64,000 bases of DNA from a bacterium. Lineage in GTDB: Bacteria > Patescibacteriota > Minisyncoccia > Phycocordibacterales > UBA1006. The notes beneath the pieces are model-generated. The model was given only the letters and a program-made list of their open reading frames with translations. It was not told where the DNA came from and ran no database searches. Shown piece by piece: positions 21,826 through 46,912 of this stretch (position 1 is its first letter; every line of letters begins with the position of its first letter). A program made the position numbers and the translations under genes. The stretch spans positions 2,839 through 66,838 of the forward strand of contig JBAWXN010000004.1 in NCBI GenBank assembly GCA_037144045.1, read 5' to 3'.

Positions 21826-22218
21826 ATGCAGAAACACCTCGAAAATCTCACGATCACTCGAGAAACTCGTGGCAAGCTTCCCAGCTTGCCATTTCTGCGT
21901 ATGAAAAATACAATCCTTGGTGAAAATTATGAATTATCACTCGTGTTCGTTGGAAGAAATAAAGCAATTCAGCTTCATAAGGACTGGAAATCTAAAAATG
22001 ACCCAGTGAACATTCTCAGTTTCCCTCTTTCCAAGACCGAAGGTGAAATAATTATTTCCCTTGAAAAGGCTCGGAGCGAGTGCAAACATTTTGACCGTAC
22101 CTATGAAAACTATCTTGCATTTCTTTTTATTCACGGATGCACCCACCTCAAAGGTTTTGTTCATGGGAATAAAATGGAACAAGAAGAAAAGAAATATCGT
22201 GGTATGTTTGGTATCTAA
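21826..22218 (+). CDS. ybeY: rRNA maturation endoribonuclease YbeY
   Basis: 130 aa; zinc-binding H3xH5xH motif HGCTHLKGFVHG. Confidence 0.85.
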   Translation: MQKHLENLTITRETRGKLPSLPFLRMKNTILGENYELSLVFVGRNKAIQLHKDWKSKNDPVNILSFPLSKTEGEIIISLEKARSECKHFDRTYENYLAFLFIHGCTHLKGFVHGNKMEQEEKKYRGMFGI

Positions 22219-22271
22219 CCCCTCAGTCTCGCTTCGCTCGACAGCTCCCCTTATAAAGGGGAGCCAAGGCT
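22219..22271. repeat. left terminal inverted repeat (53 bp perfect, about 58 bp imperfect)
   Basis: cccctcagtctcgcttcgctcgacagctccccttataaaggggagccaaggct. Confidence 0.85.
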
Positions 22272-22634
22272 CCGATTGGGTTCACGACATAATAGCTCCA
22301 TTTTTATTTTCTGGGTTACAGATGGTAAATTATTTCTTATATCTTCATTTAAAAATCTCAATATGAGAATTTTTTTATTTTGTAAATAAATATCCCTTTC
22401 TTTATCATATATAACCTGATTCAAATGATGAGCACCATCGAGCTCAATTCCTACTCTATATCTAGGGGAATAAAAATCTAATATATAGGCACCAATTGAA
22501 TACTGTCTTCGAAATCGAGCATTATTAATATATTTTTTCAAGATACTCCAAATAATCCTTTCCTCACCAGTTAAAGCTCTTCTTAATGATTTTCTACGAA
22601 CTTTTAAAATAGATTGATTGTAAAGCTGTGTCAT
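22251..22634 (-). CDS. DUF559 (Vsr-like, PD-(D/E)xK) endonuclease-domain protein
   Basis: 127 aa; ERIIWSILKK..FRRQYSIGAYILDFYSPRYRVGIELDGAHH...ILILRFLNEDI matches the DUF559 consensus; the C-terminal codons run into the left inverted repeat. Confidence 0.8.
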   Translation of the reverse strand: MTQLYNQSILKVRRKSLRRALTGEERIIWSILKKYINNARFRRQYSIGAYILDFYSPRYRVGIELDGAHHLNQVIYDKERDIYLQNKKILILRFLNEDIRNNLPSVTQKIKMELLCREPNRSLGSPL

Positions 22635-22683
22635 AGAATATAATTACAACACAATGAGTTAAATAAAATTTAAATTCTATCGA

Positions 22684-22736
22684 AGCCTTGGCTCCCCTTT
22701 ATAAGGGGAGCTGTCGAGCGAAGCGAGACTGAGGGG
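22684..22736. repeat. right terminal inverted repeat (53 bp perfect)
   Basis: Exact reverse complement of 22219-22271. Confidence 0.85.
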
Positions 22737-22742
22737 TTTATT

Positions 22743-22770
22743 TTGATAATTGAGAAAAATTTTATATAAT
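22743..22770 (+). promoter_or_regulatory. sigma70-like promoter for ftsA
   Basis: -35 TTGATA (22743-22748), 16 bp spacer, -10 TATAAT (22765-22770), about 10 bp upstream of the ftsA ATG. Confidence 0.5.
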
Positions 22771-22779
22771 ACAAGCATC

Positions 22780-23961
22780 ATGGCTCGAGACTCTAAAAAA
22801 ATTGTAGTAGGTATCGATATCGGATCACAAATGACTCGGGTAATCGTCGCGGAAGAATCCGTAAAATTGGGCTATCCTCCAAAAATACTTTCCATCGGAT
22901 ATGCAGAATCGTTCGGTATGCGTCATGGATATGTCGTGTCGCCTCGGGATGCAACCGCGTCAGTAAGCGAAGCACTGCGCATGGCTGAAAAATCAAGTGG
23001 CGTGGAAATCAAACGCGCCTACGTTGCACTTGGCGGCATTAGTTTATCATCTGAAATTGCAGGAGGTGCCGCAGGAATTGCTCGCCCTGATGGTGAAGTT
23101 ACCGATGAAGACATTCATAATGTTATGACCATTGCTGAACAAGCATTTAGCAGTAGTAAAAAGAATCGGAAAATTCTTCACGCAATCCCATTAAAATATC
23201 GCCTTGATGGTTACGAAGTTATGGGTAACCCAATTGGAATGCGCGGCAGTAGACTTGAAATTCGTGTGGTATTTGTTACCGTACTCGAACATCATTTTAA
23301 CGATATTGTTTCTGTGATTACTGATGCTGGCGTAGATATTATTGACGTCATTGCAGCCCCTATTGCTGAAAGTATGGCAACACTCACCAAGAAGCAAAAA
23401 ACTGTTGGTTGCGGCCTACTCAATATCGGGTCTGAAACCGTTTCACTCGCAGTGTTTGATAACGATACTCCGGTATCAGTAGAAACATTTTCTATTGGCT
23501 CAAATGACATTACTAATGACATCGCGCTCGGACTACGCATTTCACTTGATGAAGCTGAACGAGTAAAGGTAGGTAAATTTGAAACCGGGCAATTTCCCAA
23601 GAAGAAGATTGAAGAAATAATCGATGCACGTCTGTCTGATATTTTTGACCTCATCCAAAATCACTTAAAGGCTATTAAACGTGACGGACTCCTCCCTGCT
23701 GGAATTATTATTACTGGTGGAGGCGGTATGCTTGCCCACATTGATGAGTTTTCAAAAGCTGCGCTCAAATTACCTAGTGCTGTAATGCATGTTGACCAAG
23801 TAATGAACACACGACGTGACCTGGATCCTTCATGGCTCGTGGTATATGGACTGTGCTTCCTTGAAGACGATGATCAAGTATACGGATCAAAGATATTCAA
23901 AGCAGCCATGAAAGAAACTAAAAACGGCCTCATGAAGATCCTTAGAGAATTTTTACCATAA
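22780..23961 (+). CDS. ftsA: cell division protein FtsA
   Basis: Actin-fold ATPase motifs (VVGIDIGS, IITGGGG) and FtsA domain order; ATG at 22780 preferred over the TTG at 22750. Confidence 0.9.
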   Translation: MARDSKKIVVGIDIGSQMTRVIVAEESVKLGYPPKILSIGYAESFGMRHGYVVSPRDATASVSEALRMAEKSSGVEIKRAYVALGGISLSSEIAGGAAGIARPDGEVTDEDIHNVMTIAEQAFSSSKKNRKILHAIPLKYRLDGYEVMGNPIGMRGSRLEIRVVFVTVLEHHFNDIVSVITDAGVDIIDVIAAPIAESMATLTKKQKTVGCGLLNIGSETVSLAVFDNDTPVSVETFSIGSNDITNDIALGLRISLDEAERVKVGKFETGQFPKKKIEEIIDARLSDIFDLIQNHLKAIKRDGLLPAGIIITGGGGMLAHIDEFSKAALKLPSAVMHVDQVMNTRRDLDPSWLVVYGLCFLEDDDQVYGSKIFKAAMKETKNGLMKILREFLP

Positions 23962-44519: not shown

Positions 44520-44543
44520 AAGTCCTCTGACTATATCAAAAAA

Positions 44544-44561
44544 CCCTCAAAAAATCGAGGG
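44544..44561 (-). terminator. rho-independent terminator; copy 1 of a thrice-repeated hairpin
   Basis: ccctcaaaaaatcgaggg with a T-run on minus; near-identical copies at 44896-44913 and 46170-46187. Confidence 0.55.
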
Positions 44562-44568
44562 TTTGGGA

Positions 44569-44883: not shown

Positions 44884-44895
44884 TGATTAATAAAA

Positions 44896-44913
44896 CCCTC
44901 GAAAAATCGAGGG
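44896..44913 (-). terminator. rho-independent terminator; copy 2 of the repeated hairpin
   Basis: ccctcgaaaaatcgaggg. Confidence 0.55.
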
Positions 44914-44920
44914 TTCAGAA

Positions 44921-46144: not shown

Positions 46145-46169
46145 ATACTTATTATACCATAAGAAAAAA

Positions 46170-46187
46170 CCCTCAAAAAATCGAGGG
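46170..46187 (-). terminator. rho-independent terminator; copy 3 of the repeated hairpin
   Basis: ccctcaaaaaatcgaggg immediately after the TrmH-family gene stop. Confidence 0.55.
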
Positions 46188-46189
46188 TT

Positions 46190-46912
46190 TTAGCGTTTCC
46201 AATTATCGAGTACAATCGCGGTTGCAATTCCCACATTAAGCGATTCTGCGTGACCATACCGTGGAATAGTAATTTTCTGAGTAATATATTTTTCAAGGTC
46301 AGGATGAATACCATGCGATTCACTTCCCATGAGCAAGATTCCTTGATCAGGGAACGTATACGTATGTACATCTTCACCTGATAAATCAGCCCCAAGCACA
46401 GCGACTCCTTGATGATTTTCTAAAAATTCCTTAAGGTCTTCGTAATACACCTGCACCCGCGCAAATGAACCCTTGGTAGCACTAATTACTTTCGGGTTAT
46501 ACACATCAACCGTATTTTTTGACGCAACAATTTTTTTAATACCGTACCAATCAGCAATACGCAAAATGGTTCCTAAATTCCCTGGGTCATTTACATCTGA
46601 CAATGCGAGCACGATTTCGTTTTCTAGTGAAAATGCAGGTACTTCTTTCTGGTGAAAAATTCCAATTGCTTTATCATTTGATGACAAGGTTCCCAGTTTT
46701 TCTAATCCTGTTTTTTTAACTTCGTGAATTTTTTCAGCAATATGTTTCACTTCAGATTTATGATCGAATAGAAATTCAGAAGACGCTACAAGCGCCTCAA
46801 GTTTGTAATCAGATACCAGGAACTCTAAAACACTTACTTCTCCTTCTACGAGGAATAATTTATGTTCGTTTCGCCCTTTTTTATCATGGAGTTCCTTGAT
46901 TAATTTCTTCAT
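46190..46912 (-). CDS. SpoU/TrmH-family RNA 2'-O-methyltransferase
   Basis: 240 aa; SPOUT motifs (DPGNLGTILR, LLMGSESHGI, ESLNVGIATAI). Confidence 0.75.
   Translation of the reverse strand: MKKLIKELHDKKGRNEHKLFLVEGEVSVLEFLVSDYKLEALVASSEFLFDHKSEVKHIAEKIHEVKKTGLEKLGTLSSNDKAIGIFHQKEVPAFSLENEIVLALSDVNDPGNLGTILRIADWYGIKKIVASKNTVDVYNPKVISATKGSFARVQVYYEDLKEFLENHQGVAVLGADLSGEDVHTYTFPDQGILLMGSESHGIHPDLEKYITQKITIPRYGHAESLNVGIATAIVLDNWKR

Follow-up and report, generated by a model that had tools for sequence, protein, structure and literature searches.

Known from E. coli since the 1990s, BoxC/PIT/TMECO repeats are abundant in enterobacteria and cyanobacteria, and to our knowledge neither an enzyme nor an origin nor a means of spread has been identified for them. 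We also know of no demonstrated transposase or homing activity for DUF559 proteins; 3HRL, the one close relative with a solved structure, has not been characterised. The BoxC/PIT/TMECO repeats combine a C-run/G-run hairpin with a further matching block, are intergenic and often form inverted pairs (PMC4666352). They occur in Enterobacteria and Cyanobacteria with no known mobilising enzyme, and no transposase or integrase remnants were found at TMECO sites (PMC4666352, Holder et al. 2015). Furthermore, they mark unstable genome regions (PMC4666352). The Vsr-like fold, for its part, includes proven homing endonucleases such as I-Bth0305I (PMC3239194). No literature linking DUF559 to BoxC/PIT/TMECO-type repeats was found.

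Herein, a locus is described in which a DUF559 gene lies between two such repeat units, within a 64-kb stretch of DNA that was analysed as a whole and is called the window. In the reading preferred here, to which a probability of roughly 55% is assigned, the nuclease gene and its two inverted repeat units form a cassette whose insertion, as a whole unit, separated the ybeY stop codon from the ftsA promoter in one sublineage within a Patescibacteria clade; the role of DUF559 as the acting enzyme is inferred. The features of the locus are as follows.

22219..22736, no strand assigned: whole inserted cassette of 518 bp, from CCCCTC to GAGGGG, bounded by the arms at both ends and missing in relatives with an empty site.
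22217..22276, plus strand: left arm, made up of the C-box CCCCTC (22219-22224), a 19-nt linker, the hairpin (22244-22264) and the inner extension CAAGGCTCCGAT.
22244..22264, plus strand: left hairpin, GCTCCCCTT-ATA-AAGGGGAGC, from pattern search and folding.
22251..22634, minus strand: DUF559 / YcjD-like Vsr-fold nuclease gene of 127 aa (PF04480 at E 4e-25).
22635..22678, minus strand: AT-rich leader from the right arm to the DUF559 start codon, read directly from the sequence.
22679..22738, plus strand: right arm, the reverse complement of the left arm.
22691..22711, plus strand: right hairpin, GCTCCCCTT-TAT-AAGGGGAGC, from pattern search and folding.
21826..22218, plus strand: ybeY, the left neighbour, outside the element (PF02130 at E 7e-21; 81% identical to YbeY of the related locus L204).
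22743..22770, plus strand: ftsA promoter-like site TTGATA-16-TATAAT, the right neighbour, kept in empty alleles.

The arms are 60 nt each, 98% complementary and separated by 402 nt, and the left one overlaps the ybeY stop codon by 2 nt. The original prediction of a perfect inverted repeat of 53 nt was borne out with a slightly longer exact stretch of 55 nt (AACCCCTCAG...CCAAGGCT). In both arms a linker joins a C-box (CCCCTC) to a 9-bp CCCC/GGGG hairpin; the hairpin in each arm had been foreseen, but with a stem of 7 bp, where folding gives 9–10 bp and a 3-nt loop. Patterns of 32 nt and 21 nt derived from the arms occur at only two places in 64 kb, namely both arms, and in none of 100 shuffles, and the arm repeats are not a product of chance. 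Rfam returned only a chance match for them (E 0.6), and neither a further copy of the arms nor a second DUF559 gene was found in the 64-kb window, the only stretch of this genome scanned. The boundaries fall where they had been placed: the ybeY TAA ends at 22218, so that the CCCCTC box begins on the following base, and the ftsA promoter match starts with its -35 box 6 nt past 22736. This match, upstream of the ftsA ATG at 22780, is the best sigma-70-like site of the region (11/12). Filled and empty alleles alike have it intact and in the same position, leaving the proposed influence on ftsAZ expression unsupported. The DUF559 gene presumably has its own promoter in the leader (22635..22678); a consensus scan found no strong sigma-70 match there, and this promoter is therefore inferred.

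The gene at 22251..22634 is the sole DUF559 ORF in the window, and no protein record with exactly the sequence of its product was found. Its product matches the PF04480 profile with 88.2 bits against a cut-off of 20.6, over positions 5-108 of 109, and the NCBIfam YcjD model NF007294 over its full length (E 4e-20). Matches to PDB 3HRL (E 7e-31) and to the I-Bth0305I domain 3R3P (E 6e-4) were also obtained, the sequence match to 3HRL being decisive for the predicted Vsr-like fold. Residues D53, E64, D66 and H70, corresponding to the Vsr-like D...ExD..H motif, are invariant across 23 aligned sequences; judged from this alignment, the catalytic residues are intact, and nuclease activity is inferred. 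The identification of the interior ORF as a 127-aa DUF559 gene thus holds, as does the placement of its 3' end inside the left repeat, which contains the stop codon and the last 6–8 codons. Pfam matches are confined to DUF559, MTES_1575 and PvuRts1I-like nucleases, with no HUH (Y1) transposase domain in the ORF, and searches with Pfam, NCBIfam and further profiles matched no known transposase family in the cassette.

Relatives of the window genome provide both states of the site. In five of them (L203, L205, L206, L209 and L210; FtsA 79–87% identical), ybeY is followed directly by the same ftsA promoter with neither arms nor gene. In these gene-less relatives the arms are missing as well, so they are not a terminator conserved at ybeY-ftsA junctions. 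L206, with a clean empty site, has TAA followed by TTTTGATTATTGAG..., and its junction reads TAA followed by TTTTGATTATTGAGAAAAATTTTATATA. Compared with this allele, no target-site duplication is visible: the cassette is flanked by TAA and TTTA in the window and by TGA and TATAA in L204. The latter has a diverged cassette of its own at this site, oriented as in the window, with a nuclease 52% identical to that of the window, against 81% for YbeY and 86% for FtsA. In a neighbour-joining tree of FtsA, the filled alleles (the window, L204 and probably L202) group within the empty ones, which suggests a single gain nested within empty lineages; the tree has no support values and its internal branch is short. 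The cassette is an insertion with a filled/empty polymorphism among relatives, and the presence of both alleles at one conserved site is also one of the marks of a homing endonuclease gene. The original reading of a minimal selfish or mobile element finds support in these empty sites and in the occurrence of arm sequence at other loci. The window and L204 alleles may both go back to a single old insertion, which leaves present-day mobility in this lineage unproven, and neither an identical cassette at two sites of one genome nor an excision or insertion intermediate was observed. Some relatives also have small minus-strand ORFs between ftsA and ftsZ, without any Pfam match.

Beyond this site, DUF559 genes as a family are associated with hairpin repeats. 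In a survey of about 63 metagenomic DUF559 relatives, C-stem hairpins were present at 43/63 5' ends (68%) and 40/63 3' ends (63%), compared with 2/144 and 10/144, respectively, of other gene ends on the same contigs (1–7%; Fisher p 2e-26 and 2e-17). Hairpin density was 3.0 per kb near DUF559 genes versus 0.32 per kb elsewhere. Exact inverted repeats of at least 12 nt joined the two flanks at 25/71 DUF559 loci versus 3/652 control placements, and 19 of the 22 loci that could be classified have their units in inverted orientation around the gene. About 20 of 44 downstream hairpins begin before the stop codon, as in the window, and genes 90–95% identical were found in unrelated flanks (L050, L080, L111). 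Finished genomes agree: Deinococcus (D. proteolyticus) has an inverted box-plus-hairpin of about 36 nt on both sides of DUF559, in N. gonorrhoeae and Sphingobium the gene has hairpins on either side, in PCC 7002 it is surrounded on either side by many small CCCC/GGGG hairpins, and Synechocystis B12 has a unit downstream of the gene. In addition, DUF559 genes were 14-fold enriched among inverted-repeat genes in a survey of predicted inversions (PMC9881135). The general association of the family with inverted units is strong, and the same pairing recurs across phyla of bacteria, with E. coli ycjD as one instance; this points to a nuclease-repeat partnership that has not been described, although such an association could also come from repeats inserting beside a DUF559 gene without being moved by its product. 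In IMG/VR, 1 hairpin match and 10 gene matches were obtained, and phage carriage looks negligible.

Copies of the arms at other loci, which had been suggested as a check, are present both with and without a DUF559 gene. The right arm of L204 is of the window type (90% identity over 52 nt to the window right arm), and its left arm matches the arms of L001 at 98% identity over 45 nt; in L001 a third DUF559 gene (49–55% identical) lies between rpsI and grpE within its own inverted arms. By blastn-short, window-type arms were confined to the window and L204, and those of the L001 type to L001 and L204. Arm types are therefore shared by unrelated loci, and at the level of sequence the arms behave as exchangeable ends between cassettes. 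The perfect identity of the window arms had been read as a sign of recent mobility, of which it is no proof: since L204 has two different arm subtypes at the same site, conversion between arms, or replacement, is more likely. Of 120 loci with hairpin units, 113 are far from any DUF559 gene, which weighs against the preferred reading. A gene-less form is present in L041 as a 95-bp doublet, TACCCCTCC..hairpin..20 nt..hairpin..GGTAGGGGTA, which reproduces the arrangement of the window without the gene.

This doublet also serves the explanation that a free-standing homing endonuclease gene was copied by repair into the cut centre of a pre-existing doublet, the arms being a split target that does not itself move. 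Such an origin would be in keeping with the proven homing endonucleases of the Vsr-like fold (PMC3239194, PMC2677866), with a gene that diverges far faster than its arms (52% versus 90–98%) and with insertion sequences known to target REP palindromes (cited in PMC3116915). However, none of the five empty ybeY-ftsA sites contains a doublet or a single unit, arms and gene being present or absent together. Furthermore, the boxes lie on the gene side and the hairpins outermost in 14 DUF559 loci, against 5 with the opposite arrangement, that of the window, so that homing would need a different target at most loci. Homing into a standing doublet is consequently considered improbable, without being set aside.

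An equally improbable alternative is that DUF559 is a host-serving, non-mobile nuclease (repair, restriction-like or defence), around which repeats gather as recombination or insertion hot spots or as expression signals (insulator, promoter, ribosome-binding). TMECO loci are indeed rearrangement hot spots in E. coli (PMC4666352), and many upstream units finish in AGGAGGGGGTATAAT directly before the start codon and could supply expression signals. PADLOC gave weak, marginal matches only, to DpdF and methyl-directed restriction enzymes, and one Synechocystis DUF559 copy adjoins a BREX methylase gene. Against this, the other gene ends of the same contigs rarely have hairpins (the 1–7% versus 63–68% given above), units of the same design flank the gene in bacteria as far apart as E. 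coli, Deinococcus and Patescibacteria, and gene and arms were gained together at a clean site. PIT elements, moreover, had neither promoter nor terminator activity in earlier tests (reported in PMC4666352).

An ancestral resident gene with ordinary terminators, deleted in the relatives, is a very poor candidate. It would accommodate hairpins at the gene boundaries and the shared site and orientation of the window and L204, but it requires at least four independent base-precise deletions and leaves aside the foreign composition of the interior (26–32% G+C versus about 40% in neighbouring genes) and the same arm type at the rpsI-grpE junction of another genome. A consensus terminator scan reported no intrinsic terminator at either arm, neither of which has a T-tract, while the terminator-like hairpins of this genome are of the A-tract/stem/T-tract type. 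Finally, an invertible switch, with the 400-bp interior flipped by way of its inverted repeats, suggested by 55-bp perfect inverted repeats and by the enrichment of DUF559 among predicted programmed-inversion targets (PMC9881135), can practically be dismissed, as the vicinity contains no recombinase gene, the interior is oriented alike in the window and L204 and, the arms being identical, flipping would change neither the ORF nor its relation to an internal promoter.

Under the insertion of the cassette as one piece, a mechanism can be outlined in which the action of DUF559 on the units, the cut position, the mode of transfer and catalysis are all inferred. The nuclease would recognise the C/G-tract blocks of its own flanking units, or the hairpin or triplex extruded from them, and would nick or cut at the unit boundary. 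To resolve the break, a cassette-bearing template might then be copied, in a homing-like conversion, or the repeat-bounded segment might move. This activity of the nuclease, or else ordinary arm-arm recombination, could keep the arms identical and let cassettes swap arm subtypes. A wider conjecture, put forward only tentatively, is that stand-alone DUF559/YcjD nucleases spread BoxC/PIT/TMECO-type repeats throughout Bacteria, or maintain them by conversion, with the window as a minimal autonomous copy and the doublets as non-autonomous derivatives. If true, this would define a new mobile element class driven by a Vsr-fold PD-(D/E)xK nuclease, and mobilisation of the units by the nuclease would add a new catalytic class to the few prokaryotic transposition and homing systems. 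The cross-phylum pairing with one small nuclease family offers a concrete candidate enzyme, testable in E. coli via ycjD. It would also explain the odd Pro/Gly-rich C-terminal tails on thousands of DUF559 proteins as translated repeat sequence, the scoring of DUF559 as an "inversion target" in inverted-repeat surveys and the breaking of assemblies at such loci.

The strict TMECO pattern, CCCTCNCCC N3-6 GGGNGAGGG N3 GGGNGAGGG (PMC4666352), is not met by the window arms, which have CCCCTC, then 19 nt (22225-22243), then GCTCCCCTT-ATA-AAGGGGAGC; it fails because the third block is 19 nt away instead of 3 and the stem is CTCCCCTT. A looser criterion, a C-run/G-run hairpin with an extra C/G block on one side, is met. 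The 19-nt hairpin of the window is identical to that of GGGGAGGG-TTA-GGGTGGGGT units, and in the Nostoc and Patescibacteria units that share it the block is 3 nt away, with a TTA spacer as in type-A TMECO. Among the matches listed, this hairpin core is identical in Nostoc, Patescibacteria, Nitrospirota and other genomes. Judged by such similarity, the arm unit is a member of a cross-phylum repeat group of BoxC/PIT/TMECO design. The arms are thus no orphans (PMC4666352). Published work describes these repeats without an associated gene, whereas here a DUF559 gene lies between the units. E. coli YcjD (b1289) is a full-length homologue of the window protein (NF007294, E 4e-20), but is only about 39% identical to it and its function is equally unknown. 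The ycjD stop codon is overlapped by a BoxC-like hairpin and followed, 168 nt downstream, by TMECO #9; no unit was seen 5' of this gene. Phylogroups A, B1 and C have this gene and B2, D, E and F lack it (PMC12817139); strains without it still have 1–18 TMECO-like copies, a further point against the preferred reading.

Among mobile systems, IS200/IS605 elements and insertion sequences or MITEs with terminal inverted repeats are similarly compact, with one gene, subterminal hairpins, a conserved terminal box and gene-less miniature derivatives. The window cassette shares the lack of target duplication with IS200/IS605 and terminal inverted repeats with TIR IS/MITE; it differs in having no HUH, DDE or serine/tyrosine transposase, symmetric inverted ends and no multi-copy evidence within the 64 kb scanned. 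Vsr-like (EDxHD) homing endonucleases such as I-Bth0305I resemble the window protein in catalytic fold (3R3P, E 6e-4) and in presence/absence polymorphism, both being compared here as selfish nuclease genes. In contrast, they have additional DNA-binding domains, lack flanking repeats and are found within group I introns or between split inteins (PMC3239194, PMC2677866), whereas the window protein is a 127-aa stand-alone domain encoded in an intergenic spacer. The original reading is to be corrected in that this fold already has proven homing endonucleases among its members (PMC3239194). REP/REPIN-RAYT systems (REPtrons) likewise combine one nuclease-type gene with inverted hairpin repeats, and gene-less singles and inverted doublets elsewhere (PMC3116915). 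By analogy with IS/MITE or RAYT/REPIN pairs, the window cassette resembles a gene-carrying ("autonomous") form and the doublets its gene-less counterpart. The repeat sequences of REPtrons are unrelated to the window arms, and the RAYT is an HUH tyrosine transposase, whereas the window enzyme is a Vsr-like PD-(D/E)xK nuclease. Finally, RAYTs are mostly vertically inherited single copies, while the window cassette is polymorphic among close relatives.

The 518-bp element between ybeY and the ftsA promoter is a compact cassette, in which a single nuclease gene is enclosed by inverted arms, each built as a unit of C-box (CCCCTC-type), linker and CCCC/GGGG hairpin. Its parts and neighbours are as follows:

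rpsU and ybeY, left-hand neighbours; the ybeY stop codon ends at 22218
22217-22276, left arm (repeat finder)
22251-22634, minus strand, DUF559 ORF of 127 aa, the sole ORF within the cassette
22679-22738, right arm (repeat finder)
22743-22770, sigma-70-like site of the right-hand neighbour, 11/12 match
22780, ATG of ftsA beyond this site, followed by ftsZ

The repeat finder placed the 60-nt arms 402 nt apart with 98% complementarity, including an exact stretch of 55 nt. This confirms the inverted repeats of the original prediction, as well as the 127-aa ORF inside them, which matches the PF04480 (DUF559) profile with E 4e-25. The hairpin predicted for each repeat is likewise present in both arms; however, when folded independently it has a stem of 9-10 bp rather than 7 bp, with a 3-nt loop (GCTCCCCTT-ATA-AAGGGGAGC). 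Within the 64-kb window, neither the 32-nt outer part of the arm nor its 21-nt hairpin has a further copy, and none was obtained in 100 shuffles. The cassette interior has a G+C content of 26-32%, compared with ~40% in the surroundings. Elsewhere in the window, three near-identical A-tract/stem/T-tract hairpins, AAACCCTC(A/G)AAAAATCGAGGGTTT (44541-44564, 44894-44915 and 46166-46191), resemble ordinary bidirectional terminators, with one design serving all three sites.

Many close relatives of the window FtsA exist among public assemblies, and contigs of eight of them were compared at the ybeY-ftsA junction (percentages are FtsA identity to the window):

L202, 97%: contig begins 2 nt past the right-arm end
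L203, 87%: empty, 121-nt spacer
L204, 86%: filled with a diverged cassette
L205, 86%: empty, 51-nt spacer
L206, 85%: empty, 40-nt spacer, TAA followed by TTTTGATTATTGAGAAAAATTTTATATA
L207/L208, 84%: 252-nt spacer without arms or gene, a different palindrome inside
L209, 83%: empty, 27-nt spacer
L210, 79%: empty, 60-nt spacer

Empty junctions, which the original prediction had proposed to look for, were thus found in five relatives (L203, L205, L206, L209 and L210), where the same promoter comes after ybeY, arms and gene being absent. Relative to L206, the cleanest empty site, the window carries CCCCTC...GAGGGG (22219-22736) plus 4 nt (TTTA, 22737-22740); the target-site duplications that had been envisaged are not visible in this comparison, and the loci compared yielded no intermediate of transposition or homing. 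The L204 cassette occupies the same site in the same orientation, and the start of the contig of L202, the closest relative (positions 1-41), is probably an assembly break at the inverted repeat. By neighbour joining of FtsA, the window, L202 and L204 were grouped together, nested among empty lineages. A single gain is the simplest reading of this tree, which was built without support values and joins the three by a short branch. Altogether, these comparisons show that nuclease gene and inverted units entered a clean intergenic position together, in a single piece.

Other small elements were also observed around these genes. The spacer of L207/L208 (2749-3000 in both) contains the palindrome TTTGTCGGAAAAAATC-TGCCCTCTCT-GATTTTTTCCGACAAA, and a similar motif directly adjoins a window-like unit in a Bacteroidaceae genome (L105, 1885-1925); several small elements of palindromic type seem to have used the stretch between ybeY and ftsA as a landing site. 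The ftsA-ftsZ spacer, only 165 nt in the window, holds variable minus-strand ORFs of 91-143 aa without Pfam match in relatives (L203 4287-4625; L207 4229-4654; L209 4239-4670; L210 4234-4509). In addition, a PemK-family toxin gene with a small partner ORF is inserted between priA and a SAM-methyltransferase gene in L209 (434-1352) and is missing from the equivalent window spacer.

The arms themselves behave as exchangeable ends. Between L204 and the window, YbeY is 81% and FtsA 86% identical, and the nuclease only 52%. The L204 right arm is window-like, with 90% identity across 52 nt, providing the copy in a related genome that had been suggested as a check, and its left arm belongs to another subtype, matching the arms of L001 at 98% over 45 nt. 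The database protein most similar to the window nuclease (55%) comes from L001, where its gene lies between rpsI and grpE and is bracketed by its own inverted arms. Arm subtypes are therefore common to unrelated loci and have diverged less than the genes between them. Since the window arms are identical while L204 has two subtypes, conversion between arms, or replacement, is argued for, and perfect repeat identity is no simple proof of the recent duplication or mobility originally read from it.

Beyond these relatives, the 19-nt hairpin core was found at no fewer than 120 places (at least 120) in species-representative genomes. Among the matches listed, most are in Nostoc and Chamaesiphon, and others in Patescibacteria, Nitrospirota, Deltaproteobacteria, Elusimicrobia and Bacteroidaceae. 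In nearly all listed copies, a C-box (ACCCC[A/T]CCC) precedes the hairpin on its 5' side by a few bases, and the layout (CCCC-box, TAA, CCCTCCCC, loop, GGGGAGGG) is the published architecture of BoxC/PIT/TMECO repeats, CCCTCNCCC N3-6 GGGNGAGGG N3 GGGNGAGGG. These repeats number 23 in E. coli K-12 and are abundant in cyanobacteria, often form inverted pairs with genomic instability nearby, and have no associated transposase or integrase found (PMC4666352). Box-plus-hairpin design and an identical hairpin are found in the window arms too, but these fail the strict pattern because box and hairpin are separated by a 19-nt linker (22225-22243). Gene-less doublets of cassette-like design also exist: a 95-bp inverted doublet in Candidatus Magasanikbacteria (L041, 3925-4015) reproduces the box-outside arrangement of the cassette minus the gene.

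A DUF559 ORF lies within 610 bp at 7/120 listed hairpin loci. From the gene side, 80 metagenomic loci encoding DUF559 relatives were sampled, which are not phylogenetically independent; control gene ends came from the same contigs, >300 nt from any DUF559 gene. C-stem hairpins (stem >=7) occur at the 5' end of 43/63 DUF559 genes versus 2/144 other gene ends (Fisher p 2e-26) and at the 3' end of 40/63 versus 10/144 (Fisher p 2e-17), with a density of 3.0 per kb at DUF559 genes and 0.32 per kb elsewhere. Exact inverted repeats of >=12 nt between flanks were present at 25/71 loci against 3/652 control placements. By simple motif rules only, flanking units are inverted in 19 of the 22 loci where both could be oriented, with boxes beside the gene in 14 (the L001 arrangement) and outside in 5 (the window arrangement). 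About 20 of 44 downstream hairpins (~20/44) start upstream of the stop codon, giving many family members Pro/Gly-rich tails. Nostocales DUF559 genes can be 90-95% identical with unrelated flanks. The association of the family with inverted box-plus-hairpin units is thus strong, specific and cross-phylum. As a side observation, units flanking DUF559 genes in a group of groundwater Patescibacteria (L122-L124, L127, L129, L139, L146) have GG(A/T)GGGGGTATAAT at their ends, which lie a few bases upstream of the start codons of the DUF559 gene and the next tatD-like gene, and may therefore supply promoter-like -10 boxes.

Finished genomes display similar pairings. In Deinococcus proteolyticus pDEIPR03, a ~36-nt inverted box-plus-hairpin lies on both sides of the DUF559 gene in the window arrangement; TMECO-like units in Neisseria gonorrhoeae, related units in Sphingobium and many small CCCC/GGGG hairpins in PCC 7002 pAQ6 likewise occupy both sides, and Synechocystis B12 has a related unit downstream. 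Two features were located in E. coli K-12:

1351407-1351760, minus strand, ycjD, with a BoxC-like hairpin across its stop codon
1351204-1351239, TMECO #9, 168 nt downstream of ycjD

The ycjD 3' end is partly duplicated downstream (L211 885-1146, the sapF-ycjD-fabI locus; NC_000913 1351040-1351760). The gene is polymorphic: phylogroups A, B1 and C carry it, and eefRABCD takes its place in the others (PMC12817139). Among 60 chromosomes sampled at even spacing, the median number of further TMECO-like places was 17 in ycjD-positive and 5 in ycjD-negative genomes, a roughly threefold difference. Strains without ycjD still have copies. This co-variation fits a nuclease-repeat relationship, but is confounded by phylogeny.

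No paper linking the DUF559 family with these repeats was found by full-text literature search; subscription papers were outside its scope, and prior description is not excluded. One survey names DUF559, without comment, as enriched 14-fold among the targets of predicted inversions (PMC9881135), which can be read as an independent sign of the repeats that flank this family.

Across its entire length, the window ORF fits the NCBIfam model for E. coli YcjD as well, and D53, E64, D66 and H70 are unchanged throughout an alignment of 23 relatives. The family profile matches PDB 3HRL, presumably from Neisseria gonorrhoeae, with E 7e-31, and more weakly 3R3P, the catalytic domain of homing endonuclease I-Bth0305I (E 6e-4). 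It is inferred, without biochemistry, that the nuclease acts on its own flanking units: it would nick or cut at the unit boundary or hairpin, and the cassette as well as gene-less units would thereby be copied or converted. Homing into pre-existing doublets is weakened by empty ybeY-ftsA sites lacking any unit. Two results weaken the view that repeats collect around a host nuclease: the hairpins are specific to DUF559 ends as compared with the ends of other genes, and gene and arms arrived together. That the gene is ancestral and carries terminators is contradicted by the terminator scan, which reports no site at either arm, by the G+C content of the interior and by the existence of empty sites. 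As for an inversion switch, no recombinase is nearby, a single orientation is seen and a flip would alter nothing. For a nuclease acting on its own units, the closest analogies to cassette and gene-less units are the RAYT/REPIN and IS/MITE pairs, from which the cassette differs in its enzyme fold, a Vsr-like PD-(D/E)xK.
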